Of a DNA stretch of 60,574 nucleotides, positions 1,111 to 49,132 are shown piece by piece (position 1 is the first letter of the stretch; each line of letters begins with the position of its first letter). The DNA comes from Patescibacteria group bacterium (GTDB lineage Bacteria > Patescibacteriota > Minisyncoccia > Phycocordibacterales > UBA12445). The position numbers and the translations under genes were made by a program. The stretch spans positions 1,496 to 62,069 of the forward strand of contig DOAO01000006.1 in the NCBI GenBank assembly GCA_003504275.1. Direction: 5' to 3'. Under the pieces are notes generated by a model. The model was not told where the DNA came from and ran no database searches. It worked only from the letters and a program-made list of their open reading frames with translations.

Positions 1111-1253
1111 TTCACCCTGTTAAGTAAAATCTTTTTTAAAAAGATTTAAAATTTGTTTATTATGGTAAGATTTGTCAGGGCAATATAAGAGTCGAAAATA
1201 TTAAGAATTTTGGATAATATTAAGTAAAAACAAATTTTTACTTAACAGGGTAA
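1111..1253 (+). repeat. AT-rich element with terminal inverted repeats (TTCACCC...GGGTAAA family)
   Basis: ACCCTGTTAAGTAAAA at 1114-1129 is the exact reverse complement of 1236-1251. The element abuts the ATG at 1254. Confidence 0.75.
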
Positions 1254-3236
1254 ATGGCTGAAAATAATAAAGATATCACGTATTTTGCAGAAACTGATTA
1301 CAGAAACAAGAAGACACCTTTTGGAATAAAGGCTCTTGATAGAACAAAACACGTTTATGTTATCGGAAAGACGGGAATGGGAAAATCAACCATGCTCGAG
1401 AATTTGGCTGTTCAGGATATTCAGAATGGCAACGGAATGACATTTATTGATCCCCACGGAGGGACAGCAGAGAAGTTGCTCGATTATGTTCCAAAAGAGA
1501 GAATAAAAGATGTTATTTATTTCGCCCCGCATGACATCGACTACCCGGTCTCTTTCAACGTAATGGAGGACGTTGGCAAAGATCAAAGACACCTTGTTGC
1601 GAATGGACTCATGGCATCTTTTAAAAAGATATGGCCGGACGTCTGGTCTGCAAGAATGGAATATATTTCTATGAACATTATTTTAGCGCTTCTTGAATAT
1701 CCCGGTTCCACACTTCTTGGTATAAACAGAATGCTTTCAGATAAAGATTACAGAAAGAAGGTTGTAGATAATGTTACGGATCCTTCAGTAAAAGGTTTTT
1801 GGGTAAATGAATTCGCAAAGTATAGCGATAAAATTATGGTGGAGGCTGGTGCATCTATTCAAAATAAATTTGGACAATTTTCTTCTAATCCGCTTATCAG
1901 AAATATTATCGGTCAACCTACATCGTCATTCAACCTCCGTGAAGTAATGGATAATAAAAAGATATTTATTGCGAATCTTTCTAAGGGAAGAATGGGGGAG
2001 ATAAACACCAATCTTATTGGAGGAATGCTCATTACGAAAATATATTTGGCGGCGATGAGTCGTGCGAATATGGCCCCCGAGGAACTTAAGGAGCTTCCAA
2101 ATTTCTATGTATATGTAGATGAGTTCCAGTCATTCGTGAACGATTCTTTTGCCGATATTCTTTCTGAGGCGAGAAAATATAAATTAAATTTAACGATTGC
2201 TCATCAGTATATAGAGCAAATGCCGGAAACTGTCAGAAATGCGGTTTTCGGAAATGTTGGTACGACTATTGCTTTTAGGGTAGGACCATTTGATGCTGAA
2301 GTTCTGGAGAAAATATTTGCTCCCAAGTTTACTGCTGAAGATATTGTTAATCTCGGTTTTGCTCAGATATATTTGACTCTTATGATAGATGGGGTGGGCT
2401 CTCAACCTTTTTCTGCTAAAACTCTTCCGCCGGTTAAGATGCCTGAAATAAAATACACACAAGATATCATAGATAACTCCAGAGCTATTTATGCTAAACC
2501 GCGAGATGTCGTGGAGGCGGAGATAAGTAAGTGGCATGAAGCAATCCCTGTGGAGAGTAAAGGCGAAAAGTTTGACAAGGGAGCCGTTAAACAGGAATTA
2601 GAATTTATTAAAAAAGAGCATAATATAAAAGATTTTCCACCGAAGAAAACTTATGAGGCAAGGACATATCCACCAGTCCAGACAGTTACTTCTGCTAGGC
2701 CATTATCTACTGTTCCTGCAAAACCGACAACAACTCAATCTGTTACTCCATTAAGGAATACCGAGATAAGGCCTATTTTAAAAACTGTTTCTCAGCCAAT
2801 CGCAAGGCCTATTTCACCGTCTGTAGCAGTAAAACAGACACTGATACAACCTCCCGCAAAGTCACCTGAGAAGGTTTCTTTGAGTTCTCTTAATAAAGCC
2901 CCCCAAGACAACAAACATGCCACAGGAGAGAACATGAATGATCTTAAAAATATATTAGCAAAGGCGATGGGGGCAAAGAGTAAAGATTTTAATTTAGGAA
3001 AAATAGATAACAAAAAAGACACTTCAGCTCCTGAGACTACAAAAAAGATAACAGAGGAGCCTTTAGTTAAAAAAGGTGAGTCGGTAAATGATACAGAAGA
3101 AGTGTCTGAAAATGTTAAAAAAGACCTGCCTACCATGCCTGCGTATGCAGGGCAGACGGGAGAAAAAACAATTAAAGAAATTCCTGAGGACGTGTTAAAA
3201 AAAATTCTGGAAGAAAAACAAAATGGAGAAAAATAA
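1254..3236 (+). CDS. VirD4/TraG-like coupling-protein ATPase (CPR type) with a long low-complexity C-terminal tail
   Basis: Walker A GKTGMGKS, FIDPHG, Walker B YVYVDEFQ, SEARKY, AHQY..Q, FGNVGT.I.FRVG. Confidence 0.85.
   Translation: MAENNKDITYFAETDYRNKKTPFGIKALDRTKHVYVIGKTGMGKSTMLENLAVQDIQNGNGMTFIDPHGGTAEKLLDYVPKERIKDVIYFAPHDIDYPVSFNVMEDVGKDQRHLVANGLMASFKKIWPDVWSARMEYISMNIILALLEYPGSTLLGINRMLSDKDYRKKVVDNVTDPSVKGFWVNEFAKYSDKIMVEAGASIQNKFGQFSSNPLIRNIIGQPTSSFNLREVMDNKKIFIANLSKGRMGEINTNLIGGMLITKIYLAAMSRANMAPEELKELPNFYVYVDEFQSFVNDSFADILSEARKYKLNLTIAHQYIEQMPETVRNAVFGNVGTTIAFRVGPFDAEVLEKIFAPKFTAEDIVNLGFAQIYLTLMIDGVGSQPFSAKTLPPVKMPEIKYTQDIIDNSRAIYAKPRDVVEAEISKWHEAIPVESKGEKFDKGAVKQELEFIKKEHNIKDFPPKKTYEARTYPPVQTVTSARPLSTVPAKPTTTQSVTPLRNTEIRPILKTVSQPIARPISPSVAVKQTLIQPPAKSPEKVSLSSLNKAPQDNKHATGENMNDLKNILAKAMGAKSKDFNLGKIDNKKDTSAPETTKKITEEPLVKKGESVNDTEEVSENVKKDLPTMPAYAGQTGEKTIKEIPEDVLKKILEEKQNGEK
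3125..3160. repeat. Nested in-frame 18+18 nt palindromic insertion in a CDS
   Basis: The outer CCTGCCTAC...GCAGACGGG matches the 18-nt insert at 22978-22995 at 17 of 18 positions. The inner unit is CATGCCTGCGTATGCAGG. Confidence 0.65.
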
Positions 3237-4785
3237 AAAAACAATACTAATCACCGGTGGCGCCGGATTTATCGGTTCACATTTATGTAAAAAATACCTA
3301 GACGAAGGACACAATGTTATTTGTGTTGATAATTTACAGACAACGATAGATCCTAAAAATATTAAGGACTTTTTTGATAATGAAAATTTTACTTTTATAA
3401 AACACGACATAATTAAACCGATAAAATTTAATCAAAAAATAGATTGGATATTTAACCTAGCTTGTTCTGGTTCTTATACTGTTTATCAATATGATCCAGT
3501 CCATACAGTAGAGACTAATACCGTTGGGGTTATAAATATGCTCGAATTAGCCAGGAATAATAAAGCCAGAATAATGCAGTTTTCAACTTCCGAAATATAC
3601 GGCGACCCCCTTGAGTCTCCCCAAAAAGAAACATACAAAGGAAACGTTAATACTCTCGGTCCTCGTGCTTGTTATGATGAGGGAAAAAGATGTGCTGAAA
3701 CTTTGTTTATGGATTATTACAGGGAATTCGATTTAGATATTAAGATAATAAGAATATTCAATACTTATGGTCCAAATATGGACATGAATGACGGACGAGC
3801 TGTAAGTAACTTCGTCTCTAATGCCCTGGCGGGTAAAGATCTTGCTATCTATGGTGATGGTACTTATACAAGAAGTTTTCAATACATAGATGATCTTGTT
3901 TCGGGAATAGATAAAATGATGGTAAAAGATGGTTTTATCGGCCCTGTTAATTTGGGTAATCCGGGAGAGGTTACAATGAAAGATATCGCGGGGATTATAA
4001 TAAAAAAAATCGGCTCTAATTCTAAAATTATTTTTGAAAGGGGTGTTTCAGATGATCCGAAGAGAAGGTGTCCCGATATTTCTTTGGCAAACAAAGAGCT
4101 TGATTGGGAACCAAAAATTTCGTTAAGCGAGGGTCTTGATAAAACCATAGAGTATTTTAGGGGTGTAGCAAGACCGGAAAATAAAATAGTTGTTTTTGCT
4201 AATACTTTTTATCCCGATTGTGGCCCAGCTGAGGACTCTCTGCTTTCTTTGGCCAGAGAAATGAAAGATACTGAATTTCATGTAATTACTACGAGGTTTA
4301 AGAAAGACAGAAAAAATTTCGAAAGTATGGGCAATGTTTCCATTTATAGAATTGGTTTCGGTTTTAAATTAGATAAATATCTTCTTCCTGTTTTGGGTGC
4401 AATAAAGGCTTATTATCTTGATAAGAAATATGATTTTAAATTTGCTTGGTCTGTTATGGCAAGTTATTCTGGTTTGGCGGTGCTTTTTACTAAAATGCTG
4501 ATTGGTAACAAGATAAATTTCTTAATATCTCTAGAACCAAAAGAGACTGAAAATGTAAACATTATTAAGAGAACTGTATTCAAACCACTATTAAGGGCAA
4601 TATTAAAAAATGCGGAGTCTGTTCACATCTTGGATAAGGATGAGGAAAAATATTTTAAAAAAATAGATTCTAGCATTAATATATCACATCGTTCTGCTGA
4701 TACGGGAACTTTTGTAAAACAGTTAAGAAGTGCTCATTCCGACATATTGAACAAAAAGCAGAAAAAACTTTCAAGACCAAAATAA
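3223..4785 (+). CDS. UDP-glucuronate decarboxylase (UDP-xylose synthase)-like SDR fused to a GT4 N-terminal-like domain
   Basis: ITGGAGFIGSHL, STSEIYGDP, GPRACYDEGKRCAET, RIFNTYGP, DDPKRRCPDI. The added C-terminal part (from about residue 320; VVFANTFYP...HVITTRF...IYRIGFG) resembles the N-terminus of the next GT4. Confidence 0.85.
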   Translation: MEKNKKTILITGGAGFIGSHLCKKYLDEGHNVICVDNLQTTIDPKNIKDFFDNENFTFIKHDIIKPIKFNQKIDWIFNLACSGSYTVYQYDPVHTVETNTVGVINMLELARNNKARIMQFSTSEIYGDPLESPQKETYKGNVNTLGPRACYDEGKRCAETLFMDYYREFDLDIKIIRIFNTYGPNMDMNDGRAVSNFVSNALAGKDLAIYGDGTYTRSFQYIDDLVSGIDKMMVKDGFIGPVNLGNPGEVTMKDIAGIIIKKIGSNSKIIFERGVSDDPKRRCPDISLANKELDWEPKISLSEGLDKTIEYFRGVARPENKIVVFANTFYPDCGPAEDSLLSLAREMKDTEFHVITTRFKKDRKNFESMGNVSIYRIGFGFKLDKYLLPVLGAIKAYYLDKKYDFKFAWSVMASYSGLAVLFTKMLIGNKINFLISLEPKETENVNIIKRTVFKPLLRAILKNAESVHILDKDEEKYFKKIDSSINISHRSADTGTFVKQLRSAHSDILNKKQKKLSRPK

Positions 4786-4787
4786 AA

Positions 4788-5990
4788 ATGAAGAAGAGAA
4801 TTTTAATTTTTTCACTTGCTTATTATCCGAATTTTGTTGGGGGGGCTGAAGTGGCCATTAAGGAAATTACTGACAGAATTTCCCCCGTCGATTTTGAGTT
4901 TGATATGATCACGCCTCGTTTTGATAGAAAACTTCCGAAGTTTGAAAAGATTGGAAATGTGAACGTGCACAGGATTGGTTTTACCGCTAAGTCTCCAAAA
5001 ATTGCGGATCTAGTAAAATTCCCTCTAAATTTAAATAAATACTTATTTCCCTTTACCTCTTGTATAAAGGCGAGTCAGCTTCATAGGGAGAGAAAATATG
5101 ATTCTGTCTGGGCCATGATGGCTAATTATGCAGGTTTTGGTGCTATGTTTTTTAAGACCTTTCACCCTTCGATAAAATATTTACTGACTCTTCAAGAAGG
5201 AGACCCTATTGATTATATAAAAAAGAGAGTGAGATTTGTATATCCTTTGTTTGTGAAAATTTTTGCAAAAGCCGATCGAATTCAAGCTATTTCTACTTAT
5301 TTGGCATGGTTTGCCAGGGATATGGGGTATAAGGGAAAACTAGACGTTGTATCAAATGGTGTGGACATATCTCTCTTTACTAAAAAATACAGTGATAAGG
5401 AACTTGGCGATTTAAAAATAAAATTAGGTAAAAAAGAGGGTGATAAATATATAATTACCACATCTCGTTTAGTATTAAAAAATGCAGTAGATGATGTTAT
5501 AAAGTCCCTTGTATTTTTGCCTTCCAATTTTAAATTTATAATCTTGGGCATGGGACCAGATCAGGAGATTCTTCAGCGACTCGCCAAACAAGAAGGTGTC
5601 TCTGATAGGGTTATTTTCTTGGGTCAAATTAATTATTCGGAAATACCAAAATATTTAAAAATTTCGGATGTATTTATAAGGCCGTCTCTTTCAGAGGGTA
5701 TGGGTAATTCTTTTATAGAGGCAATGGCAGCTGAAATTCCCGTTATAGCGACTGCGGTTGGTGGTATTACTGATTTTTTGTTTGATCCTATTAAAAATAT
5801 AGACAAGGAACCAACTGGATTATTTTGTGATGTTAGAGACCCTCAGAACATTGCTGAACAAATAAAAATGATTGAAGAAAATCATGAACTTCGTAAAAGG
5901 ATAACAAAAAATGGGAAAGAATTGGCGGTGACAAAATATGACTGGAATCTTATTGCGGATAATATGAGAGAAATATTCAATAAAATATGA
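4788..5990 (+). CDS. Glycosyltransferase family 4
   Basis: GGAEVA, TTSRLVLKNAVD, SEGMGNSFIEAMAAEIPVIATAVGG. Confidence 0.9.
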   Translation: MKKRILIFSLAYYPNFVGGAEVAIKEITDRISPVDFEFDMITPRFDRKLPKFEKIGNVNVHRIGFTAKSPKIADLVKFPLNLNKYLFPFTSCIKASQLHRERKYDSVWAMMANYAGFGAMFFKTFHPSIKYLLTLQEGDPIDYIKKRVRFVYPLFVKIFAKADRIQAISTYLAWFARDMGYKGKLDVVSNGVDISLFTKKYSDKELGDLKIKLGKKEGDKYIITTSRLVLKNAVDDVIKSLVFLPSNFKFIILGMGPDQEILQRLAKQEGVSDRVIFLGQINYSEIPKYLKISDVFIRPSLSEGMGNSFIEAMAAEIPVIATAVGGITDFLFDPIKNIDKEPTGLFCDVRDPQNIAEQIKMIEENHELRKRITKNGKELAVTKYDWNLIADNMREIFNKI

Positions 5991-7585
5991 TAAAGAGAGT
6001 TTATAAAAAAATAAACGAAAAAGCAGAAGAAAAATTTCCTATAGCATATAAGTCACTTTTTAAGAATAGAATTTTTATTAAATATATTTTGGTGGGATTT
6101 ATTGCTGCAATTGTTGATCTGGGGTCTCTTTATGTTTTTGTTGAATACATTTTTTATCACAGATATTTAATAGCTACAGCCTCGGCTTTTATTTTTGCTT
6201 TTGTTTTTGGTGCCACACTCCAAAAATTTTGGACATTTCAAGACAAGAATACTTCTGGTATGGGATTTCAAATTTTTATCTACACAATTCTAGCTGTTGT
6301 TAATCTTTTCTTAAATTTATTTTTAGTATTCTTTTTTGTTGAAGCACTCGATGTTTGGTATCTTTTAGCCCAATTGATCGCCATGGCTATTTTAGCCAAC
6401 ATGAATTTTGTTTTATACAGTCGCTTTGTTTTTAAAAGTTCAATGATGATACCTGGAAGCGTTTTGTTGTCTGCCGGTATATTTCCTCCTGATATTGGTG
6501 GTCCCGCAACTCATGCTTTTAGGTTCTTAAAGAGTTTTAAAGAGAAGGGAATAAAGACCGGGGTTATCGCTTACTCAGATGTAAAAAGCGACTTAATAAT
6601 TGACGATGGTTTTGAGATTGAGAGGGTATCTAGAAAATTACCTTTTGGGATTAGGCATTTTGTGTATTTAATAAAGCTTTTTGCTGCTTCACTCAGATAT
6701 GAAATAATTTATGCTCAAGATATATCAGCTGCAGGCTTACCGGCGGCCTTTATTGCCAGATTGGTGGGAAGAAGATTTATGGTTAGGGTTGGGGGAGACC
6801 TTCTTTGGGAGAGGTTGGCAGAGAAAGGAAAGATAAAAATTTCTGTAATAAATTTTTATAATTTGGAAAAATATAAGAAATATTTTTTGTATCATGTTGG
6901 CCAGACAGTATTAATGAGTGCAGAAAAGATAATTGTACCGACAGATTTACTTGCGAATATTTATAAAAATTATTATGGAATATCAAAAGATAATATTGTA
7001 GTTTTACCAAACCCGATTCCATCTGCATGTGAGGCAGGTCTTCAGGATAGACCAGCAAAGATAGGAAAAAATATTTTATTTGCAGGAAGGTTTGTTAAAT
7101 ACAAAAATCTTGAACGACTTATTATTGCTTTCGCTAATATTTATACAGAGATATCACCCGCTAAATTGATATTAATAGGTGATGGTCCGGAAAAAAGAGA
7201 ACTTGTTAGATTGATAAAGAGGTTAAATATTAGGAATCAAGTTATTTTTAAGGCAAAAGTTCCACACGATGAGTTAATGAGAGAGATAAAAGAGTGTTCT
7301 GTTTGCGTTGCCCCAGCTCTTACGGAATTTAATCCTAATTTTATTTTAGAGTGTCTTTCCTGCGCTAGGCCGGTTATAATAACGAAGGAAAATGGTCTTT
7401 CTATTAAGTTACCTGAACGTTTTACTTGGAATGCGATAGATATAAAAGATATAGAAAATAAATTAATAGATATTATAAATTCCGGCATCGTCGCAGAGGA
7501 AGAAATTTTAGATGTGATACAAAAAAACAAAAACACGACGTGGAATGATATAATAAATGAACATTTAAATATTTTTAAAAAATAA
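5987..7585 (+). CDS. GtrA-like membrane domain fused to glycosyltransferase family 4
   Basis: N-terminal four-TM GtrA pattern (KYILVG...VDLGSL...LQKFWTF...AQLIA), then FPPDIGGPATH, FAGRFVKYKN, EFNPNFILECLS. Confidence 0.85.
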   Translation: MIKRVYKKINEKAEEKFPIAYKSLFKNRIFIKYILVGFIAAIVDLGSLYVFVEYIFYHRYLIATASAFIFAFVFGATLQKFWTFQDKNTSGMGFQIFIYTILAVVNLFLNLFLVFFFVEALDVWYLLAQLIAMAILANMNFVLYSRFVFKSSMMIPGSVLLSAGIFPPDIGGPATHAFRFLKSFKEKGIKTGVIAYSDVKSDLIIDDGFEIERVSRKLPFGIRHFVYLIKLFAASLRYEIIYAQDISAAGLPAAFIARLVGRRFMVRVGGDLLWERLAEKGKIKISVINFYNLEKYKKYFLYHVGQTVLMSAEKIIVPTDLLANIYKNYYGISKDNIVVLPNPIPSACEAGLQDRPAKIGKNILFAGRFVKYKNLERLIIAFANIYTEISPAKLILIGDGPEKRELVRLIKRLNIRNQVIFKAKVPHDELMREIKECSVCVAPALTEFNPNFILECLSCARPVIITKENGLSIKLPERFTWNAIDIKDIENKLIDIINSGIVAEEEILDVIQKNKNTTWNDIINEHLNIFKK

Positions 7586-7595
7586 TTAAAAAAGG

Positions 7596-8744
7596 ATGGA
7601 TAAAATAACCAAAGGCATAAATGTTTTAATGATAGGCAGTGATATGGAAATATTGCACCCTAATAGTGACTCCTGGAAAAGAATGAAAGAATACGGTTCT
7701 CTTGTTAATCGACTAGACATCGTTATTTTTAATGGCAATTTTAGAGGTGGAAACGAAGATGATGTATATCAAGTGTCTGACAATGTTTTTGCTCACCCTA
7801 GGTCATTTTTGGGTCTGTTGGGTCTGTTTAAAGTTAGCCCAAGAAAACTTTCTTTTGTTCTCAATCACAAGATAGATCTTGTGACCACACAAGACCCCTT
7901 TGTTTTGGGTCTTATTGGTAGAAGACTTGCAAAGTGGCTTAGGGCCGGTTTTCAGGTTCAAATTCACACTGATTTTATGAGTCCTTATTTTAGGAAAGAA
8001 TCATTTTATAATAGAATCAAGGTTTATATTGCCAAGTCCGTTTTAAAGAGCGCGACGGGAATACGAGTCGTATCTTCTAGGATCTTTGACTCTATTAAGG
8101 GGCTCAGACTAAAAGTTAAACCAATAATTCTTCCCATCTGGACAGATGTTTCGGCAATAAAAAATTCTCCGATAAGTGTTGATCTGAAGAAAAAATACCC
8201 ACAATTTAAAAAAATATTTTTAATGGCCTCAAGGATAACAATTGAGAAAAACATATTTTTGGCAATACACGCAATGAGACATGTTTTGAAAGATCGTTCG
8301 GAGATTGGTCTTATTATTGTGGGTAGCGGTCCGTTTAGAAAATTAGCAGAAGGACTTGTTCGAGGAGAAGGTTTGCAGAAAAGTATTATATTTGAAGATT
8401 GGTCCGATCATTTGTCTTCTTATTATAAAACCTGTGATGTCTTTTTAAATACTTCTAACTACGAGGGTTATGGTAGGACAATTGTTGAAGCTCTATCTGT
8501 GGGTACTCCTGTTATAACGACAGATGTCGGGGTTTCTGAACAATTAATAAAAAATGATCAGAATGGGATCGTTGTTCCTGTCGGTTCAAAGAAGGAGTTA
8601 GAGATAGCCATGCTGAAGATTGCTAATGATGATTCTTATCTCTCTGAATTGAAAGATGGCGCAAAAAATATCATTTTTGAAATGGGAAATAGAGATGAAT
8701 ATCTAGAGAAGTACGCTAGAAGCTGGGAGGAATCTATAAAATAA
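7596..8744 (+). CDS. Glycosyltransferase family 4
   Basis: MASRITIEKN, YEGYGRTIVEALSVGTPVITTDVG. Confidence 0.9.
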   Translation: MDKITKGINVLMIGSDMEILHPNSDSWKRMKEYGSLVNRLDIVIFNGNFRGGNEDDVYQVSDNVFAHPRSFLGLLGLFKVSPRKLSFVLNHKIDLVTTQDPFVLGLIGRRLAKWLRAGFQVQIHTDFMSPYFRKESFYNRIKVYIAKSVLKSATGIRVVSSRIFDSIKGLRLKVKPIILPIWTDVSAIKNSPISVDLKKKYPQFKKIFLMASRITIEKNIFLAIHAMRHVLKDRSEIGLIIVGSGPFRKLAEGLVRGEGLQKSIIFEDWSDHLSSYYKTCDVFLNTSNYEGYGRTIVEALSVGTPVITTDVGVSEQLIKNDQNGIVVPVGSKKELEIAMLKIANDDSYLSELKDGAKNIIFEMGNRDEYLEKYARSWEESIK

Positions 8745-9345: not shown

Positions 9346-9735
9346 ACGACCCGCCAAAATGTGAAAACATTTTGGCGGTTTGTCGTTTCGCGAGGGTGAG
9401 AGATTTGAAGGCCACAGTCGGGCCCCTTGCTGAAAGCAAGGGAGACGAGGCGGGGTCGCGACCTTTTGCGAAGCAAAAGAGTTGTGACCAAATCTCTCCT
9501 TACGACCCGCCAAAATGTGAAAACATTTTGGCGGTTTGTCGTTTCGCGAGGGTGAGAGATTTGAAGGCCACAGTCCGTCTACAGGTGTCGCCTATATCTC
9601 GGCGACCGGTAACCCTTGTTGAAAACAAGGGAGAAGAGGCGGGGTTGCACAAAATTTTCAAAGAAAATTTATGTGTGACCAAATCTCTCCTTATGACCCA
9701 CCCAGACGCGTAAGCGTCTGGGTGGTTTGTCGTTT
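9346..9735 (+). repeat. tRNA-anchored antisense/hairpin cassette array (two full units plus a terminal hairpin)
   Basis: Units start at 9346, 9502 and 9693. 9392-9409 is the reverse complement of tRNA positions 9323-9340. GTGACC+AAATCTCTC occurs at 9484 and 9675. Confidence 0.85.
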
Positions 9736-12144: not shown

Positions 12145-12410
12145 TTTTTTATCATCATTTAATCCTTTAAATACTTGATATTCTAACACCCTCTTTTACT
12201 CAAAAAAAAATTTGTTTTACAACGGTTATCCACACCGTTGTTTTTATTTTTTTGGAATAAAATGAAACTATTATTAGTAGTTTTATTTTTATCCGCCAAA
12301 ATTTTTCGCCCAGCAAAAAAGGAAAAGGTCGGGCGAATTGTAATTAAATATAATCGAGTTGATTATATTTTAATTAACAAGAAAACTTAAGAGAATATCT
12401 AAAAAATAAA

Positions 12411-24316: not shown

Positions 24317-24462
24317 TTTACCCGGTTAAATAAAATTGACTGATAATATTTTTTTAGATTATTTAAAATATTTATTGTTTATTTTAGTATAAATATTTTT
24401 TAATTCACTTTAGTCAATTTTAATTTTTTATATTTTAAAAAAATTATATTTAACCGGGTGAA
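24317..24462 (-). repeat. AT-rich element with terminal inverted repeats (TTCACCC...GGGTAAA family)
   Basis: TTTACCCGGTTAAATA (24317-24332) pairs with TATTTAACCGGGTGAA (24447-24462) with one mismatch. A nested AAAATTGACT/AGTCAATTTT pair is also present. Confidence 0.75.
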
Positions 24463-28572: not shown

Positions 28573-28690
28573 TTTACCCTCCTAAATTTTTACCCCCTTA
28601 AAATAATGGAATAAAGTAAACACCATATTATATTAAATGTTTATATTTTTCCACTATAATTAGTATTTAATAAAAATTTTGGCGGGTACA
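28573..28690 (-). repeat. AT-rich element with imperfect terminal inverted repeats
   Basis: TTTACCCTCCTAAATTTT (28573-28590) ... AAAATTTTGGCGGGTACA (28673-28690). Abuts the tsaD ATG. Confidence 0.7.
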
Positions 28691-28743
28691 ATAAGGCTGT
28701 TGGTGGCAATGAAAAACCCACCATATTGGTGGGTTAATAACGA

Positions 28744-40758: not shown

Positions 40759-40868
40759 TTTACCCTCCTAAATTTTTTTAATAATTTCGATATATCTAAA
40801 TAAATTGATCTATCGTAATTGTTTATATTTTGACTAAAAATATTTTTTGAAAAATTTTGGTGGGCGAA
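40759..40868 (-). repeat. AT-rich element with imperfect terminal inverted repeats
   Basis: TTTACCCTCCTAAATTTT (40759-40776) ... AAAATTTTGGTGGGCGAA (40851-40868). Confidence 0.7.
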
Positions 40869-41546: not shown

Positions 41547-41596
41547 TTTGCAATTATACTACAAAATCAAAGCATTTGCAACATAAAAGAATAAAG

Positions 41597-41757
41597 CCCG
41601 CCCGACCGAATGATTTCGGTCATTCGGGCGGGAAGCAAGAATTAGGAATCGACGCTTTTGCGTCGTTGCGAGACGAGACCTTGTCGAGACATGGCAATCT
41701 GTGAGGATAATCTAAAATTAAATCTGGATTACCACGGGCTTCGCCCTCGTAATGACG
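41597..41757. repeat. Intergenic palindrome cluster
   Basis: 36-nt CCCGCCCGA...TCGGGCGGG (41597-41632) and an inverted pair of CGTC.TTRCGAG...ATGG/GTGG.AATC units (41661-41700 and 41725-41757). Confidence 0.75.
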
Positions 41758-41919
41758 TGATGATGGGGTAATGTTGACATATTTGAATTAATCTTGTAAT
41801 ATCAATCGAAGTTATTTGTTTTTTGAAAATTGCCGTGGCGAAAGCACGTTGCTTAGCCCTACAGCAAGGGTGTTCTGTAAAAACGGTCATATCTGCAAAT
41901 AGCAGAAAAGGAGGAAATT

Positions 41920-42540
41920 ATGACTGAATCACAGATTCCCAAATTACTCGCGGTTCTCGTAGAACATCAGAAGCAATTCGGGGGACTTTCCGCAGAAGAA
42001 GCCCAGTGGATTATTAAGAATCCAAAGGAAGCTATCGGTCTTTTGACGGAGGTTGTAAAAAAAAGATTTCATCATGCTAGGTATTTTTTTCCGATTATTT
42101 TTACTTACGAAACCGACAAGCGTCGCGACATGAATAAGATACTTACGAATCTTGGCCGCAAGATCTGTGATCGGGCTATCGATATCATGAAGCAAAAAGA
42201 CTACAAAGAATCAATCAAAACTAAGACAGAAAAGGTTGAGATCTGTGCGGCCACTATTTATGATCTTACTGGAAAAAATGTTGCCACAACAAAAGAAATT
42301 TATGCCGCGATCTTGGCAAAAGATCACACTCTTTGTAAGCCAGAGGATGGTCCTTATATTTGTGAAGTCTATAGTGGCGATAACACGGTATTTTTAGCCA
42401 TGAAGCCCATTCACGATTCCAGTGGCGAACCACTTGGTTTCTTTGTGTGTCGTCATCACGATATTATTTGCCTTTCTGCGGATCATCTTGACCCTGAGGG
42501 CCAGTGGGATGGTTATCATTATATTGTTTTTCGCCGTTAA
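41920..42540 (+). CDS. Hypothetical protein
   Basis: 206 aa, strong SD. C-terminal LCKPEDGP...FLAMKPIHDSSG...W....VFRR. Confidence 0.75.
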   Translation: MTESQIPKLLAVLVEHQKQFGGLSAEEAQWIIKNPKEAIGLLTEVVKKRFHHARYFFPIIFTYETDKRRDMNKILTNLGRKICDRAIDIMKQKDYKESIKTKTEKVEICAATIYDLTGKNVATTKEIYAAILAKDHTLCKPEDGPYICEVYSGDNTVFLAMKPIHDSSGEPLGFFVCRHHDIICLSADHLDPEGQWDGYHYIVFRR

Positions 42541-42646
42541 GTATGAATAAACTTTTAAAATATCCTAAGTAGTAATATCTGCCCCGTTCCTTTTTGGAAT
42601 CGGGGCTTTTTTATTTCTCTAAATAATTGTAAACTTATTCTTAATT

Positions 42647-42682
42647 CCCGCCCGAACAATAGAAATCGTTCATTCGGGCAGG
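42647..42682. repeat. 36-nt CCCGCCCGA-family palindrome
   Basis: CCCGCCCGAA...TTCGGGCAGG. Confidence 0.65.
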
Positions 42683-42715
42683 TATTATTCATTATTCTTA
42701 ATTCATTTTTTATTT

Positions 42716-43321
42716 ATGTCATATATTATCGTCGGTTTAGGTAACCCGGGGGAGGAATACGAAGATACAAGACACAATATGGGACGCATCGTTCTTGAGA
42801 ATATGAGGAAGATATTTTCTAAGGATGCGGATTTTTCAGATTGGGAGTTTGATAAAAAACTCCGCGCACTTTTCAGCGAAGGAAAAGTTGCTAAGCAAAA
42901 AATAATGTTGATTGAACCGGACAACTATATGAATAATTCCGGAGGAAGCGTGAAGCCTCTCATTACAAGCAAGAAAAAAGCCGAGGAGCTTATTGTAATT
43001 CACGACGATCTCGACCTGCCCATCGGTAAATATAAAATAACTTTCAATCGTGGTTCCGGGGGTCACAAGGGGGTGGAATCAATAATCAAAAATATTAAGA
43101 CAGAGGGGTTTGTCAGATTCCGAATGGGGATCAGCCCAGTAACTCCTAGCGGTAAATTAAAAAAGCCGAGTGGGGAAGAGGCTGTTACAAAAATGATAAT
43201 GGGTAAGTTCAAGGAGTCTGAAATGGCAGAGATAAAGAAGATGTCCAAGAGACTTGCCGAAGCCACAGAGATGATGATTGCTGAGGGGCGCGACAAAGCA
43301 ATGAGTTTGTTTAGTTGCTAA
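42716..43321 (+). CDS. pth: Peptidyl-tRNA hydrolase
   Basis: IVGLGNPG..Y..TRHN.G, YMNNSG, IHDDLD, SGGHKG. Confidence 0.95.
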   Translation: MSYIIVGLGNPGEEYEDTRHNMGRIVLENMRKIFSKDADFSDWEFDKKLRALFSEGKVAKQKIMLIEPDNYMNNSGGSVKPLITSKKKAEELIVIHDDLDLPIGKYKITFNRGSGGHKGVESIIKNIKTEGFVRFRMGISPVTPSGKLKKPSGEEAVTKMIMGKFKESEMAEIKKMSKRLAEATEMMIAEGRDKAMSLFSC

Positions 43322-43388
43322 ACTCTGACATTAAATGGGATAAAATAAAAAACACCCCACGAATGAGGTGTTTTTTATTTTATTTAAA

Positions 43389-43565
43389 TTATAGACTTGC
43401 TGGTACTTCAGCTGATGTTGTAGCTGTTGTTTCAACTGTAGTTGTAGCAACAACATTCTCAGCAACCGGAGTTTCAACAGCAGGAGTAGCTGTCTTTGTC
43501 ATCATAAGGTAACCACCATAGATAGCCAAGGCAACAATAACTGTCCAAACTAATTTAGAGTTCAT
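43389..43565 (-). CDS. 58-aa single-TM protein with a Thr/Ala/Val-rich tail (not in the ORF track)
   Basis: Translated by hand: MNSKLVWTVIVALAIYGGYLMMTKTATPAVETPVAENVVATTTVETTATTSAEVPASL. A terminator hairpin lies downstream. Confidence 0.75.
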   Translation of the reverse strand: MNSKLVWTVIVALAIYGGYLMMTKTATPAVETPVAENVVATTTVETTATTSAEVPASL

Positions 43566-43682
43566 TTTTTGTATTTAAATTTAAAAATTCTTTCCTCGAC
43601 CTTTGTCTTGAGACATCGATATTAGCACCTTTCTTTAAAAAAGCAATCCCATTCTAGTGATTTTATGAAATATGCCCTTACT

Positions 43683-44045
43683 TTATAATCCCGGGCAATT
43701 TGTTGCTTTTGTATAACCGGCCGATTCGGCTTCTTCTCTGGATGTAAATTCCACTATATTTTTGGGGCTTATTTTCTTAACTCCCTCACACCAAGGGGAG
43801 TAGTAGCGAGTACCGTTCTTAGAGGCAACATAAATTTCGGTGGAAGTGCTTGTGTTTATATTAGAAAGGCCTATTTCTTTACCTATTTTGGGCATTTCTA
43901 TTGTTATTGGGGTCTTTTTATCAGCTATTTTTGATAATCTACCTAGCCCAAATCCTATTAATAAACAGAGGGTTATAATAAGCACAATAAATATCTCTTC
44001 CTTGTAGCCCTTGATTTTTTCTTTAATATCATTTAATATCGTCAT
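43683..44045 (-). CDS. Membrane-anchored protein with C-terminal Ada-like metal-binding motif
   Basis: TM, then YVASKNGTRYYSPWC...F.S...AE.AGY..ATNC. The start is uncertain. Confidence 0.7.
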   Translation of the reverse strand: MTILNDIKEKIKGYKEEIFIVLIITLCLLIGFGLGRLSKIADKKTPITIEMPKIGKEIGLSNINTSTSTEIYVASKNGTRYYSPWCEGVKKISPKNIVEFTSREEAESAGYTKATNCPGL

Positions 44046-44126
44046 ATCATTGTTTGGAAATAATATACTATATATATTTTTCAAGCAATTCTTAATTCAT
44101 TATTCTTTATTCTTAATTAATAAGTT

Positions 44127-44399
44127 ATGGCACATACAAAAGCTGGTGGAACCGCGAAAAACCTGAGAGACTCACAACCAAAGTATTTGGGAACAAAGCT
44201 TTATGGTGGAGAGACTGCCAAGGCCGGTTCAATAATCATAAGACAAAGAGGAACAGTTATCTTGCCTGGAGCGAATGTTAAGCTCGGTAAGGACCACACA
44301 ATTTTTGCTCTTAAGGCAGGAAAAGTTAAATTCGGCAAAAAGAGAAAAGTTCATTTTGACGGAACTACTAAGAACAAGGTTACTGTCTCCGTAGAGTAA
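44127..44399 (+). CDS. rpmA: Ribosomal protein bL27
   Basis: MAHTKAGG...[21 protein letters not shown]. Confidence 0.96.
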
Positions 44400-44526
44400 A
44401 TACTAAAATAAAAAAACAGCATCCACTCGGATGCTGTTTTTGTTTATCTTTGAAATAAATTTTTTAAAACATGCGGTCAATAGAAAGGGTAGTGATATTT
44501 TGTCTATAAAATATTATTTTACATAC

Positions 44527-44548
44527 CATCTACGCCATGGCGTAGATG
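44527..44548. repeat. 22-bp perfect palindrome
   Basis: CATCTACGCCATGGCGTAGATG. Confidence 0.9.
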
Positions 44549-44574
44549 AGGGAAAGGTGTATAATACAAAACAA

Positions 44575-44970
44575 ATGTCCCAACAAAGAAAAATCTATTA
44601 TAAAGGCGTTAAGGTTAATTCGTTTGGTGTGCCCTTTTTAAATCCAAATGATGAAATAAAAGATAAAAAACATTTTCAGAATAAAGCCCATTATCATGCT
44701 TCTTTTATATCTTCGTTTAAATATGATTCCCCAAAGAACTTAATCGTTATGTACGATATTCCACATGAGAAGAAAAGGGAGCGTGATTGGTTTCGTCGGC
44801 ATTTAAAGAAATTTGATTATATAATGATTCAAAAAAGTGTTTGGGTTGGCCCTTCCCCATTACCCATAAGCTTTCTCGAATATGTGAAATCAATTGGTCT
44901 GAAAGATCAGCTTAAAGTTTTTAAACTCGCAAAACCATACACAGGGAAGGATAATGATTTATATCTATAA
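44575..44970 (+). CDS. Solitary Cas2-like / PaaX C-terminal-like protein
   Basis: LIVMYDIP..K..ERDWFR..L..F....IQKSVWV. No cas genes or array nearby. Start set at MSQQRK, 9 nt after TATAAT. Confidence 0.75.
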   Translation: MSQQRKIYYKGVKVNSFGVPFLNPNDEIKDKKHFQNKAHYHASFISSFKYDSPKNLIVMYDIPHEKKRERDWFRRHLKKFDYIMIQKSVWVGPSPLPISFLEYVKSIGLKDQLKVFKLAKPYTGKDNDLYL

Positions 44971-44987
44971 CACAGACTCCAGAAAAT

Positions 44988-45021
44988 TAACTCAATCTAC
45001 GCCATGGCGTAGATTGAGTTA
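44988..45021. repeat. 34-bp perfect palindrome
   Basis: TAACTCAATCTACGCCATGGCGTAGATTGAGTTA. The 20-bp core is identical to that of 44527-44548. Confidence 0.9.
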
Positions 45022-45043
45022 GTTAAGGAGATTATCAGATCTA

Positions 45044-45487
45044 TTATTTTTTTGCCGTTACCTCAAGTCTTATTTTTGCAGTTTTGCCACTTATTTTTAT
45101 TGTGACCTCGTGTGACCCAGTCTCTTTTATCGGTTTATCCATCTCAAGCTCTTCTGGTTTTATATCAGCTCCTTTGTTTTTGATTAGTTTTAATATTTCT
45201 TCTTTTTTAATACCCGCAAAAAGGTGTCCCTCCTCATTTGCTTTTGAATATACGATAATTGGTTCCTTCGAAATATTGGTAATTTGCTCATTTATTTTTG
45301 CCTCTCTGTTTGCCTTGTCGGCATTCATTTTCTTTTTTTCATCTTCCGCTTTTTTTATGACGGCATCTGTCGCTATTTCTCCTAGCTTATTTTTTATCAA
45401 AAAATTTCTTGCATAACCGTCAGATACCTCTTTAATCTCATACCTTCTTCCGATTTTTGGTACGTCTTTAAGTAATATTATCTTCAT
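45044..45487 (-). CDS. rplI: Ribosomal protein bL9
   Basis: MKIILLKDV..IG...EVSDGYARNFL, GHLFAGI. Confidence 0.95.
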   Translation of the reverse strand: MKIILLKDVPKIGRRYEIKEVSDGYARNFLIKNKLGEIATDAVIKKAEDEKKKMNADKANREAKINEQITNISKEPIIVYSKANEEGHLFAGIKKEEILKLIKNKGADIKPEELEMDKPIKETGSHEVTIKISGKTAKIRLEVTAKK

Positions 45488-45625
45488 GGTGTTTATACAG
45501 CAGAACTAGTAATTAATTTTAATATACTTGTTTTTAAATATTAAAGCGAAAAACGTAAAATGAAAAGCGTAAAATAACAACTTAACCTGAGTTTTACACT
45601 TTGCGTTTAAAGTTTTACGCTCTCG

Positions 45626-46942
45626 CTATTTACCATCAATTAATAATTTAGCGGCTCTATCTAATTGAGGATCTTTTCCTGCGATTACATCCTCTTTGGT
45701 TATCGGGATTACAATGTCTGGCGTAAGTCCAAAATCAGAAATAGAGTGTCCATTCGGGGTCATCCATTTCGCAACTGTGATTTTAAGGAAGGTGTCTCCT
45801 GTTACTGGAACGAGTTCTTGAACAGAACCTTTTCCAAAAGATTTTTCTCCGACAAGTTTAGCAACACCATGTTCACTTAGTGCACCAGCTAGAATTTCTG
45901 ATGCTGATGCTGAACCCCTATCAATAAGAATCGCCATTTTTAAAACTTTTGGATCAAAAATATCATACCCCTTACTTCTGTGAACGTTGCTTATTTTATT
46001 GCTATTTTTTCCAAATTCTTCTGAGACCACCACTTTTCCTGATGGAAGGAACCAGCTTGCCATATCTACAGAGGCCTCTAAATATCCGCCGGGATTTCCC
46101 CGAAGGTCCAAAATCAATTTATCTGATCCGGATAATATAAATTTTCTAAGGGCATCTCGGAACAGATCTGCTGATGGGGCCGAGAAGTTAAAGAGTCTAA
46201 TTACAAATACTCCGTCGTTACGAAGTCCATCGCCGGCATTATTTCCCCGAAGCAAATCACCGTTTTTGGTTTTTCCGGTACCAAGTTGAATAGTAGGAAT
46301 ATCTATCGTGGCTCTTGTTATTTTAATTTCTATTGGCTCAGGCTCTCCATCTCTTACGAATGTTAATTTGACCTCGGTTCCTTTCTTGCCCCTGATAAGA
46401 GAAACTGCCTCCTCTACACTCATTCCGAAGGTTGTTTTATCCTCAATAGATACTACCTTATCTCCAGATTTAACACCTGCTTTTTTGGCAGGAGTACCTT
46501 CTAGTGGTGCCACCACAGTTATAACTCCTTCTTTAATTCCAAGCTCCATACCGACTCCTTCAAAAGTGCCACTTATTTCATTTTGAAAATTTTTTGCTTG
46601 TTCTGGTGCCATGAAAACTGAGTATGGATCACCTAAAGAACTGACAAGTCCTGATATTGCTCCGTAAACTTTTTCTTCGTCGGTCGGAATCTTTTTTGTT
46701 GTTGTGCTACTACCACTTTCTATATGGCCATTAACATATTTTTCATTTATTAGGTTCCACGTGACCCAGAAGGGGGTAAAGTCAGTTTGTGCGACATGTT
46801 GCGGTTGTTCTTTGTTTTTTAATTCAGATACTTTTTCTATTTGAGGACGCGAGTCAAAACCAACCCCCATTCCAAGAATAAAAGAGACACCTATTGTTAA
46901 AACATAGAGTGCTATGGAACTAATTTTTTTATCTTTAGTCAT
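45626..46942 (-). CDS. S41 C-terminal processing peptidase (CtpA-like)
   Basis: LGDPYS, PDZ domain GVGMEL, LDLRGNPGG, SASASEI, KSFGKGSVQ. Confidence 0.92.
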   Translation of the reverse strand: MTKDKKISSIALYVLTIGVSFILGMGVGFDSRPQIEKVSELKNKEQPQHVAQTDFTPFWVTWNLINEKYVNGHIESGSSTTTKKIPTDEEKVYGAISGLVSSLGDPYSVFMAPEQAKNFQNEISGTFEGVGMELGIKEGVITVVAPLEGTPAKKAGVKSGDKVVSIEDKTTFGMSVEEAVSLIRGKKGTEVKLTFVRDGEPEPIEIKITRATIDIPTIQLGTGKTKNGDLLRGNNAGDGLRNDGVFVIRLFNFSAPSADLFRDALRKFILSGSDKLILDLRGNPGGYLEASVDMASWFLPSGKVVVSEEFGKNSNKISNVHRSKGYDIFDPKVLKMAILIDRGSASASEILAGALSEHGVAKLVGEKSFGKGSVQELVPVTGDTFLKITVAKWMTPNGHSISDFGLTPDIVIPITKEDVIAGKDPQLDRAAKLLIDGK

Positions 46943-47106
46943 TTACGGGTAATTATGACAAATTTTCTTTTTACTTTCAAACTGAGTTATTCAGTTTTTT
47001 AAATTAAAAAATAGCCCCATGCATTGTGTGCATGGGGTAATTATTTTAAAACCTTACTCAGCATGATTATTTAATTGTTCTTTTATGTTCTTTGTCTTGC
47101 ATTAAC

Positions 47107-47613
47107 TCAGCAAATAAAAGTCAAGAAACCTAAGGCGGCTTCTGTTCTCCAAAGGTTTATTTTAGAGACCCAGTCTTGTGGAAAAGGTAGTATCTCTATT
47201 CTTTCATGAATAGACACCATTCTTTCCCAGATAGCTCCACGAGACCCCCACCATTTAGGAAGAAAAAATGTCTTTTTTATTAGGCCAGATCTCAAGATTT
47301 TTCCGTAAAATATCTCAAGTAGCTCACGGCAATAAACTGGAGGGTAGTCTGATTTTACTATTCGATGCATTGCTTCCTCAAAGGCAATCTGATTAAAGAC
47401 ACTAAAGCCTTTTATGCGAAGAAATTTTATGGAGTTCTCAAAAAATTCCATATTTTCTTTGAAGCTTTTTCCGCCGGTTGTCATTGGCCCACAAACCTGA
47501 ACTACTGGTTGAGGCATACGCTTGATAACCCTTATAGCTATATCGGCGAGCTCCTCAAAGGTTTTGGCTTTTTCTAGATCCTCTAAGTCTGAGCTTTTCC
47601 AGTATTTTTCCAT
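47107..47613 (-). CDS. Hypothetical protein, DUF4406/NDT-like fold
   Basis: VCGPMTTG...F......L...G..VFNQ...FLP.W..SRGA.WE. Strong SD. Confidence 0.55.
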   Translation of the reverse strand: MEKYWKSSDLEDLEKAKTFEELADIAIRVIKRMPQPVVQVCGPMTTGGKSFKENMEFFENSIKFLRIKGFSVFNQIAFEEAMHRIVKSDYPPVYCRELLEIFYGKILRSGLIKKTFFLPKWWGSRGAIWERMVSIHERIEILPFPQDWVSKINLWRTEAALGFLTFIC

Positions 47614-47876
47614 AAAAACCTCCTTTTTGTATTTTTATTGAATTAAATAATATTTTAAATTTTCAAAGAATTTTTTAAAACAATAGCAGTAAATAGATTA
47701 TCTATCAAGTCAATCTTATTTTTTTTAATTTTTTTGAGTGAATTTTAAAAAACAGCTTTACAAATAATCATTTTTCGTTATACTGTGCCCTATTATAAGT
47801 AACACCGTTTGGAGAGAGGAATCGAACCGACGGGAACCCCCGAACCCATGTAGAAGGGGTAAAATTGGGAATAAAA

Positions 47877-49019
47877 ATGACAACAATAGAAAAAACAGTA
47901 TTGTCCAAAACCGTGTTGATGGACAAGGTGATGAAAGATTCACCACTTCCACCTCAGGAAGGACAGCTCGTAGAAGGTAAGGTTATAGGTCACGATAAAC
48001 TCAGACTCTATATAGATGTTAAGCCATTTGGTACAGCTCTTATTTACGGAAGAGAATACCTTAACGCAAGAGATGTAATTAAAAATATTCACGACGGTGA
48101 TAGCGTTACCGCTAAGGTAGTTGAGCCCGAGACAGAAGAAGGATACATCGGACTTTCTCTAAAGGAAGCCAGACAGGCAGCCACATGGAGCGATGCAGAA
48201 GAGGCTATTAAGAATAAGACAATATTTGAACTCTTGGTTAAAGATGCCAACAAGGGCGGTCTTATTATTGACTGGCAGAATGTATCAGGATTCCTTCCCG
48301 CTTCACAGCTCAAGGAGGAACACTATCCTAGGGTTACGGATGGTAACAAGGACAGAATAATGGAGGAACTGAAGAAACTCATTGGAAAGAAAATTGCAGT
48401 TACAATTATCGGTGCCACACCAAAGGAGGACAAACTTATTTTCTCCGAGAAGACAGTTGGAGAGAAAGACAGAACAGAATTGGTTGAGAAGTACAAGGTG
48501 GGGGATGTCCTCGACGGAGAGGTTACGGGCGCAGTTGACTTCGGTATCTTCGTTAAGGTTGAGAGTGGTCTCGAGGGACTCGTTCACATTTCCGAGCTTG
48601 ATTGGTCACTCGTTGAAAATCCAAGAAAATTGTTCAATGTTGGCGATAAAGTAAAGGCTAAGGTTATTGAGATAAAGGACGGAAAGGTTTCACTTTCCAT
48701 AAAAGCTCTCAAGGATAACCCATGGAAATCTGCTGAGGCTAAATACAAGAAAGGAATGAAAGTAAGCGGTGTTCCTATCAAATACAACAAGCACGGTGTG
48801 CTCGTAAGTATTGAAGAGGGAGTAGCCGGTTTGGTTCACATTTCTAACTACGGCACAGAGGATAAGATGAAACAGGCACTTGAGCTCGGAAAGAATTATG
48901 ACTTCGTTATGAATCTATTTGAGCCTAAAGAGCAGAAAATGACTCTTGTCCCGGCTGATATTGCCGAGAAGAAAGCCGCAGAAGCTGCTACAGCTCCCGC
49001 AACAGAAGAGAAGAAATAA
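47877..49019 (+). CDS. rpsA: Ribosomal protein bS1 (four S1 domains)
   Basis: GYIGLSLK, ANKGGL, GFLPASQL, GLVHISELDW, SLSIKAL. Confidence 0.93.
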   Translation: MTTIEKTVLSKTVLMDKVMKDSPLPPQEGQLVEGKVIGHDKLRLYIDVKPFGTALIYGREYLNARDVIKNIHDGDSVTAKVVEPETEEGYIGLSLKEARQAATWSDAEEAIKNKTIFELLVKDANKGGLIIDWQNVSGFLPASQLKEEHYPRVTDGNKDRIMEELKKLIGKKIAVTIIGATPKEDKLIFSEKTVGEKDRTELVEKYKVGDVLDGEVTGAVDFGIFVKVESGLEGLVHISELDWSLVENPRKLFNVGDKVKAKVIEIKDGKVSLSIKALKDNPWKSAEAKYKKGMKVSGVPIKYNKHGVLVSIEEGVAGLVHISNYGTEDKMKQALELGKNYDFVMNLFEPKEQKMTLVPADIAEKKAAEAATAPATEEKK

Positions 49020-49132
49020 TTCACCCGCCAAAATTTTTCAATTTAAGTTAATTAAATCAGAAAATAAAATTTTTTGATTAAAAAATAATTGAAAGAGAAA
49101 TCTTAACTTTATAAAAAAATTAGGAGGGTAAA
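49020..49132 (+). repeat. AT-rich element with imperfect terminal inverted repeats
   Basis: TTCACCCGCCAAAATTTT (49020-49037) ... AAAAATTAGGAGGGTAAA (49115-49132). Starts directly after the rpsA TAA. Confidence 0.7.

Follow-up and report, generated by a model that had tools for sequence, protein, structure and literature searches.

What are the short AT-rich elements with complementary ends that recur between the genes of a stretch of Parcubacteria/Paceibacteria (Patescibacteria) DNA, and why do all of them face the same way as the genes around them? The stretch, hereafter the window, is 60,574 nucleotides (nt) long, has a GC content of 37%, and comes from an uncultivated bacterium of Rifle aquifer groundwater metagenomes. 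A preliminary description of five such elements (c1–c5) had offered two answers, a family resembling MITEs (miniature transposable elements bounded by inverted repeats) with decayed interiors, or a long-stem RNA leader or intercistronic element, and had taken the fixed polarity to favor an RNA role. In our best reading, the five copies belong to a large, non-coding palindromic insertion family of Parcubacteria, which resembles MITEs and repetitive extragenic palindromes (REPs) and is apparently undescribed. We put at roughly 0.55 the probability that they are mobile palindromes of this kind with a built-in Shine-Dalgarno (SD) sequence, whose stem sets stop and start codons face to face and could preserve translational coupling. 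Results from outside the window rest on fetched related loci and on one metagenome scan, in which JGI and ENA contigs were searched for both arms of subtype B (see below) spaced 70–100 nt.

All five copies were found where the preliminary description had placed them, two on the forward and three on the reverse strand, each matching local transcription. As described there, four start with TTCRCCC and c3 starts with T(T)GTACCC, the end GGGTAAA is present in all five, and the interiors are AT-rich (14–24% GC) and have no detectable mutual similarity. Folding gave a closing helix of 14–20 bp in each copy. The outer heptamers TTCACCC and GGGTAAA are common to both subtypes; the arms of subtype A (TTCACCCKGTTAAR.../...YTTAACMGGGTAAA) pair nearly perfectly, with duplex energies of −20 to −23 kcal/mol, and lack an SD, and those of subtype B in the window (YRCCCRCCAAAATTTTT.../...AAAAATTWAGGAGGGTAAA) form duplexes of −11 to −16 kcal/mol. 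Subtype A comprises c1 and c2. The 144-nt c1 (1111–1254, + strand; 5′ arm 1111–1129, TTCACCCTGTTAAGTAAAA; 3′ arm 1236–1254, TTTTACTTAACAGGGTAAA) is preceded by a terminator-like hairpin (1064–1081), and its final A doubles as the first letter of the start codon (ATG) of a TraG/VirD4-like gene (1254–3236), whereas the 146-nt c2 (24317–24462, − strand; 5′ arm 24448–24462, TTCACCCGGTTAAAT; 3′ arm 24317–24331, ATTTAACCGGGTAAA) begins directly after the prsW TAA and ends 3 nt before the ATG of hsp20. The first copy of subtype B, c3 (119 nt; 28573–28691, − strand; 5′ arm 28672–28691, TTGTACCCGCCAAAATTTTT; 3′ arm 28573–28592, ending AGGAGGGTAAA), has a terminator-like hairpin upstream (28715–28735), carries a tandem second GGGGGTAAAAA at 28589–28599, and ends 0 nt from the ATG of tsaD, the same distance as for c1. 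The second, c4 (110 nt; 40759–40868, − strand; 5′ arm 40850–40868, TTCGCCCACCAAAATTTTT; 3′ arm 40759–40777, AAAAATTTAGGAGGGTAAA), lies between the signal peptidase gene lepB and hisS, with the ATG 14 nt beyond GGG. The third, c5 (113 nt; 49020–49132, + strand; 5′ arm 49020–49038, TTCACCCGCCAAAATTTTT; 3′ arm 49114–49132, AAAAAATTAGGAGGGTAAA), begins directly after the TAA of rpsA, the gene for ribosomal protein S1, and has no start codon after it; it is located within the rpsA 3′ untranslated region, because the rpsA terminator hairpin follows it. This hairpin, which is outside the element (49148–49176, + strand; CCACTTCGA...TCGAGGTGG then TTTTT), keeps its position in relatives without c5. The flanking genes of the copies are prsW, hsp20, tsaD, rpsA and the TraG/VirD4-like ATPase gene, in agreement with the preliminary description, together with lepB, hisS and uvrB.

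Shuffling of the window ruled out a chance origin of this arrangement. The strict pattern TTCRCCC-N90-140-GGGTAAA occurs 4 times, compared with a mean of 0.037 and a maximum of 1 in 300 dinucleotide shuffles, and a looser pattern occurs 5 times compared with 0.44; the motif pair is therefore more frequent than in shuffled DNA, one of the points on which the preliminary description could have failed. The single heptamers are not enriched, and the non-random part is their pairing. Viral contigs led to the same conclusion, since none of 39 chance matches to the 5′ arms in them had a complementary partner arm.

Comparison of orthologous junctions showed that the elements are inserted DNA, placed in short stop-to-start or stop-to-terminator gaps. 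The sites of c2 and c5 are empty in relatives with 80–97% protein identity, where the junctions measure 2–13 nt. The prsW–hsp20 spacing is 2–7 nt in the relatives L003, L004 and L007 (TsaD identity, 80%, 70% and 54%, respectively), and the c2 site reads TAA-TCATTCT-ATG or similar in relatives and TAA-[146 nt]-TCT-ATG in the window. L040 (97% S1 identity) lacks c5, and its rpsA stop codon runs straight into TTTTAAAAA and the terminator. In the window, the 113-nt c5 separates these same flanks, having been inserted precisely at the boundary of stop codon and terminator; c5 is absent in five further relatives. These empty sites rule out an old conserved leader for c2 and c5. In a contig of sequencing run X8, from a relative with ~95% identity, c5 (49020–49126) is replaced by a different sequence of 65 letters, after which the match to the window resumes at GGTAAA, and the c5 site of this strain may be occupied by a different, shorter family member.

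The most extensive set of empty sites came from contig L097, whose closest named relative is in Candidatus Ryanbacteria. Seven copies of 108–114 nt occupy the junctions of its S10/spc ribosomal-protein operon, each running from the stop codon to GGGTAA|ATG, and its relatives L123, L124 and L125 (L2 identities given as 82% and 76%) have 1–12 nt at the same junctions. Presence and absence at orthologous sites, a criterion for MITEs, was accordingly found for c2, c5 and the seven L097 copies. In the same operon rpsS is followed directly by rpsC (L097:6059–7159); rplV (L22) is not at its usual place, and tblastn found none in the 12.5-kb L097 locus.

In L037 (91% S1 identity), the 42-nt lepB–hisS spacer holds ATTATAAAAATTTAGGAAGGTAAATAA, the same as the c4 3′ arm, and a 14-nt word of the c4 interior, and has no 5′ arm; the c4 5′ arm sits in a block of 70 nt that is extra relative to L037. 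More distant relatives have short lepB–hisS spacers without an SD. The simplest reading of these spacers would be that the common ancestor already had the c4 element, of which L037 has since lost the 5′ part while keeping the SD arm as a hisS leader. Upstream of tsaD there is no synteny in relatives, so that the insertion of c3 could not be polarized. Strain L034 (positions 1–410, compared with window positions 1–2600) is 100% identical downstream and lacks c1 as well as the first ~448 codons of the TraG/VirD4-like gene, with unrelated DNA instead; the c1 region varies between strains.

The family proved to be far larger than the five copies originally described. The subtype-B scan gave 52 matches on 41 contigs from Rifle, Hainich groundwater, marine sediment and other sites, and looser arm patterns yielded 62 distinct elements in 368 kb of contigs. 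Subtype-B arms are near-invariant across these metagenomes (TTCACCCGCCAAAATTTT...AAAATTTAGGAGGGTAAA). Their 5′ core CCCNCCAAAAT occurs 66 times in the 368 kb, in 53 cases with the 3′ core AGGAGGGTAA 60–160 nt downstream, and most of the remaining 5′ cores belong to copies with variant 3′ arms (AGGCGGG, GGGTAC) or to short hairpin members of 35–44 nt, in which the same arms enclose a tetraloop-sized loop. The elements have further features by which MITEs are recognized, namely imperfect terminal inverted repeats of 16–20 bp, a length of 105–146 bp, no coding capacity and many copies. Contig L082 (1298–1514) contains two tandem copies with one TAAA in common, the only tandem pair seen, L098 (6134–6215) contains nested copies, and L085 (117–403) has three consecutive short hairpin members just upstream of a 23S rRNA gene's 5′ end. 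No further subtype-A copy was found in the fetched loci (the metagenome scan covered subtype B), no match was found in GenBank phages, and viral contigs contained no two-arm match.

We also considered that each hairpin arose locally without any mobility, by an inverted duplication (template switching) of the ribosome-binding-site region already present. The tandemly duplicated 3′ arm of c3, and c4, whose 3′ arm is common with L037 while its 5′ arm is in the extra 70-nt block, are what such an origin would produce. However, identical 18-nt arms, mismatched at the same three positions, are found at more than 60 unrelated sites across several metagenomes, the empty sites of c2, c5 and the L097 copies have neither arm, common interiors are found ahead of different genes, and the arms do not match the local pre-insertion sequence. 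We regard a local origin as very improbable.

Analysis of the interiors revealed the least explained feature of the family, which is constant length without sequence conservation. The core-to-core length is sharply peaked at 102–107 nt, and the subtype-B interior measures ~65–70 nt and is A-rich and unfolded (A 41%, T 33%, G 15% and C 11% on the sense strand); no conserved interior position was found, and interior folding was not in excess of shuffled sequence (mean z = −0.17). BLAST left 42 of 57 interiors as singletons, and clusters formed only within or between closely related contigs, sometimes ahead of different genes. Such bursts with common interiors, as read from the contigs, show that the elements amplify within genomes. 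Of the MITE-like family with decayed interiors that had been proposed, the insertion therefore stood, supported by empty sites, bursts and arms conserved across metagenomes, whereas decay does not describe interiors that are unrelated but of near-constant length. In the rpsL-leader copies of L096, L098 and L115, the interior contains a second SD and ATG (CTAAGGAGGGGAAAATG) and a small hairpin whose loop, ACCUCC, is like the 16S anti-SD; the L088 interior contains CACCUCC.

An interior without conserved positions also bears on whether the elements are portable promoter cassettes, in which the interior would provide a promoter to the gene downstream, with the arms as mere transposon ends. Several copies (c1, c3 and those in L088, L092, L096 and L098) are located directly after terminator-like hairpins, so that a promoter must lie nearby, and c1 contains weak sigma-70-like matches. 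On the other hand, c2–c5 have no promoter-like site on the sense strand, the best scores in 53 elements (7.9–8.3) do not differ from those of shuffled interiors (8.1), intercistronic and first-gene copies score alike, and most copies are located within operons. Scores no better than shuffled and the lack of any conserved interior position largely refuted the promoter cassette, which we consider highly unlikely.

Pairing of the arms is conserved beyond the window. In a comparison of 48 arm pairs with 500 shuffles and slid controls, the stem was kept and the inner pair 19–30 showed covariation (UA 25, CG 10, AU 3) above all shuffles and slid controls. The single recurring mismatch of the preliminary description was not borne out for subtype B, in which three positions are mismatched in 41–46 of the 48 copies (C·A, G·A and A·A), with the A always on the 3′ arm. 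When these three mismatches are restored, the arms become a perfect palindrome (TTCACCCGCCAAAATTTT/AAAATTTTGGCGGGTGAA; −27.8 kcal/mol), and two of the three A's convert TTGGCGGG into the SD sequence TAGGAGGG, as read from the arms. The subtype-B 3′ arm accordingly reads AGGAGG-GTAA-ATG, a ready-made SD site, and the majority of elements in the family bring a ribosome-binding site with them. AGGAGG on the elements is unusual for the genome of the window, because this genome rarely uses SD sites; an SD-like sequence is present at only 8 of 54 window genes. Six of these 54 genes have a TATAAT-like box 4–11 nt ahead of the start codon, and boxes this near the start suggest frequent leaderless mRNAs.

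A long stem between cistrons could also be a processing site, at which RNase III would cut to separate the cistrons or to set mRNA half-lives, in the manner of phage T7 sites. The stems of 16–20 bp and the positions of the copies are consistent with cleavage of a common transcript, c5 being located between stop codon and terminator and c2 and the L097 copies inside operons. However, the three mismatches break the subtype-B stem into ~7+2+3 contiguous pairs, which make a weak substrate for RNase III, and a cut inside the 3′ arm would remove the SD. This explanation appears improbable, although Correia elements are cut by RNase III at their inverted repeats (PMC10969869).

The polarity seen in the window extends to the whole family. 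To orient an element we relied solely on the base by which TTTAGG differs from TTTTGG, and we counted open reading frames of at least 50 codons with a start within 25 nt of the G-rich arm. Such a start was present in 49 of 62 elements, compared with 4 of 61 in the opposite reading, confirming that orientation relative to the neighboring genes is non-random. In 38 of 62 elements the start is 3–5 nt from GGG (27 of these as GGGTAA|ATG), and in 17 elements the upstream stop codon abuts TTCA ahead of CCC; even the few copies that have no start codon next to them point in the direction of the neighboring genes. The polarity noted in the preliminary description is thus very strong, but the SD of the 3′ arm accounts for it no less well than the dedicated RNA role that had been argued for.

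Analysis of the genes downstream of the elements showed that 27 of the 48 distinct genes encode ribosomal proteins and one encodes EF-G (together 28/48), classes that by our own estimate make up ~6% of a genome of this size. The same junctions, ahead of rpsL, rpsS, rplF and rplW, are filled in several genomes. These data raise the possibility of a host-selected translation module, kept and perhaps spread by recombination for better expression of highly expressed genes in a lineage poor in SD sites; it would offer a strong SD, a ~70-nt unstructured A/U-rich waiting platform, for which the A-rich, unfolded interiors would be suited, and a weak anti-SD clamp tying initiation to upstream translation. 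The scarcity of SD sites in the window and the retention of the c4 SD arm as hisS leader in L037 are in line with such a role. In contrast, c5 is in a 3′ untranslated region and is not followed by a gene start, an SD is lacking in subtype A, AGGAGGG is replaced by AGGCGGG in the L097 burst, and close relatives do well on junctions of 1–12 nt; the enrichment could equally result from insertion bias to highly transcribed DNA or from survivorship. Host selection overlaps with our preferred explanation, and an enhancer selected by the host may coexist with mobility; as the explanation in its own right, we find it rather doubtful.

A mobile palindrome with a built-in SD, the reading that we prefer, could account for these observations as follows. 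The elements would be moved in trans by an enzyme, and either only the SD-supplying orientation would survive in tight essential operons, or only that orientation would be made. In mRNA, the two arms would pair and the interior would be looped out. At junctions of the form TAA|TTCACCC...GGGTAA|ATG the stem could, from its bases, be extended by one further pair, between the final A of UAA and the U in AUG, which would place the upstream UAA and the downstream AUG opposite each other at the stem base. The three A-mismatches would make the 3′ strand an SD and at the same time hold the subtype-B helix weak, near the strength of SD:anti-SD pairing. A terminating ribosome covers roughly a dozen nt past the stop codon; a ribosome ending the upstream gene would therefore open up the 5′ arm and make the SD accessible, and the coupling of the original 1–10-nt junction would survive the insertion. 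The subtype-B stem could also open unaided, since its energy (−11 to −16 kcal/mol) is near that of SD:anti-SD pairing (−10.7 kcal/mol).

Several observations weigh against this reading. For the mobility part, a search of ~370 kb for arm pairs 200–4000 nt apart yielded no larger version in which these ends enclose a transposase gene. Junction comparisons revealed no consistent target-site duplication, the alternatives being no duplication or, at best, TAA: the comparison of c5 with L040 fits no duplication, and a flanking TAA is possible but is the same as stop codon plus A-rich spacer, and at the L097 junctions the right boundary is fixed directly before the ATG, with 0–5 leftover spacer bases at the left. 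Unrelated interiors of constant length are not predicted by simple MITE decay, and the near-identical arms in the organism of the window and in the distant Ryanbacteria-like contig call for horizontal spread or functional constraint. The enrichment of ribosomal-protein and EF-G genes is more suggestive of benefit or targeting than of neutral junk. For the RNA part, the hisS leader of L037 keeps the 3′ SD arm without the 5′ arm, transcription of copies that follow terminators may begin within the element, in which case the 5′ arm would be missing there too, and the AGGCGGG of the L097 burst is a poor SD. No RNA-specific wobble signature was found, since G·U pairs are not favored over A·C pairs (23 vs 61; 23 vs 31 without position 3). 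The L097 operon was not found in any RNA run. Three runs labelled as metatranscriptomes contain a relative with ~95% identity; one contig from them spans hsp20 and 111 nt of c2, and another has the 65-letter replacement of c5. The depth is 3–5x, and DNA carry-over is possible. The RNA leader or intercistronic element of the preliminary description may still hold but gained no direct support, given the three conserved mismatches, the lack of a G·U excess, the unstructured interiors and the lone 3′ arm of L037.

A more specific form of the mobile-element explanation would make the family a specialist for gene junctions, inserting strand-specifically into stop-to-start gaps of highly transcribed operons, perhaps via DNA left single-stranded by transcription. 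Such an element would carry a complete device for restarting translation, made up of the stem that sets UAA opposite AUG, the SD provided by the three fixed A-mismatches, and a loop of fixed length as a ribosome landing site. We offer this form tentatively, as less likely than not.

Other features of the window include further candidates for the family. A probable decayed subtype-B copy, read from the sequence, lies on the + strand at approximately 12289–12400 (ATCCGCCAAAATTTT ... AAAACTTAAGAGAAT), upstream of a class II ribonucleotide reductase gene (12411); a short hairpin, TTCGCCCAGC...GTCGGGCGAA (TTCGCCC...GGGCGAA; 12305–12337), is nested in its 5′ arm, as is likewise the case in L093, L096, L108 and L112. 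The short hairpin GACCCGCCAAAATGT-GAAA-ACATTTTGGCGG occurs on the + strand at 9346–9383 and again at 9502–9539, inside tRNA-trailer modules. These hairpins have the word CCCGCCAAAAT in common with the subtype-B 5′ arm, and possibly both derive from the same stock of palindromes. At 30421–30505 (− strand), the SD region of an HD-domain gene (AAAAAGGAGGGAAAGATATG) can pair with CCCCACCCTTTACG ~77 nt upstream, perhaps as a weak anti-SD arrangement of the B-like type that lacks the TTCA/GGGTAAA ends. The only Rfam matches in the window at the family gathering score were seven tRNAs, none over the elements. GC skew tracks only gene direction, so that the direction of replication could not be located by skew.

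Small palindromic repeats occur in many bacteria, and comparison with known systems revealed partial similarities only. Correia elements (CREE/NEMIS) of Neisseria show a TA duplication and conserved interiors, are found in either orientation, and provide promoters as well as sites for IHF and RNase III. They resemble the present elements as non-coding palindromic repeats of ~100–150 bp with terminal inverted repeats beside genes, whereas the present elements have other termini (no Neisseria-type 26-bp repeats), belong to another phylum, show no TA duplication, and are distinguished by interiors that are unrelated, a polarity that is near-absolute, the SD of the gene-proximal arm and their precise fit from stop to start. 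REP/REPIN-RAYT systems, with their IS200/IS605-like Y1 transposases, are similar in being many-copy extragenic imperfect palindromes in transcribed spacers without clear target duplication, in having short hairpin members (35–44 nt here) beside long ones made of two inverted arms, and in their conserved mismatches and flanking tetranucleotide. However, the flanks here are TTCA/TAAA (TGAA) and not GTAG, the arms are not themselves palindromic REPs, and REPs are mostly located after genes and lack ribosome-binding sites. Elements derived from IS200/IS605 have no inverted terminal repeats but a subterminal hairpin of its own at either end, and they insert in a strand-specific manner, without duplication, 3′ of a fixed target of 4–5 nt. 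The lack of a consistent duplication, the strict strandedness and the right end abutting ATG in 38 of 62 elements would fit this type, whereas the pairing of the two ends with each other and the varying left flanks would not. MIRUs are reportedly small repeats in operon junctions, oriented with transcription, with ends that overlap stop and start codons and with operon translation kept, but they are direct tandem repeats with small reading frames rather than single palindromic units with an SD arm. An integron attC site was rejected, since GTTAAG ... CTTAAC in subtype A is in the reverse order of RYYYAAC ... GTTRRRY.

Correia elements are co-transcribed, form long mRNA hairpins and affect expression (PMC10969869, in part), as the present elements may do. 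ERIC, RUP, BOX and SPRITE elements of enterobacteria and pneumococcus are also small, transcribed, hairpin-forming intergenic repeats of similar size without a transposase of their own (PMC3049150), but their interiors are conserved per family and they have neither strict polarity to gene starts nor an SD. In its proposed working, the family resembles translational coupling by masking of a ribosome-binding site, as in rpmI–rplT of E. coli and MS2 coat–replicase, in which an upstream sequence pairs with the SD and start codon and upstream translation opens it; a biophysical model of translational coupling is available (PMC4538824). Masking there is by native, gene-specific mRNA sequence, whereas here, by analogy, both partners would arrive on an inserted, repeated cassette. 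In none of Correia elements, REP/REPIN-RAYT, ERIC/RUP/BOX or MIRUs are inverted arms found together with strict polarity, a position from stop to start codon and an SD of their own. A review of prokaryotic MITEs does not mention start or stop codons or ribosome-binding sites (PMC10969869), and full-text literature searches gave no description of such elements in bacteria of the candidate phyla radiation (CPR).

One-way, SD-carrying elements that fit exactly from stop to start thus had no description in the literature searched, and the operons they have invaded are those that reduced genomes conserve best and pack most tightly, with seven copies in the S10/spc operon of one lineage. The arms provide a simple annotation marker for such spacers in CPR genomes and point to a type of polymorphism between strains in groundwater metagenomes. 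Provided that coupling is indeed preserved by the stem, the family would show how selfish DNA can become harmless inside essential polycistronic mRNAs, and also how new ribosome-binding sites originate in lineages that mostly lack SD sites. Should the elements prove to be junction specialists, they would be a main source of SD-led genes in SD-poor Parcubacteria, as the remnant in the hisS leader may illustrate.

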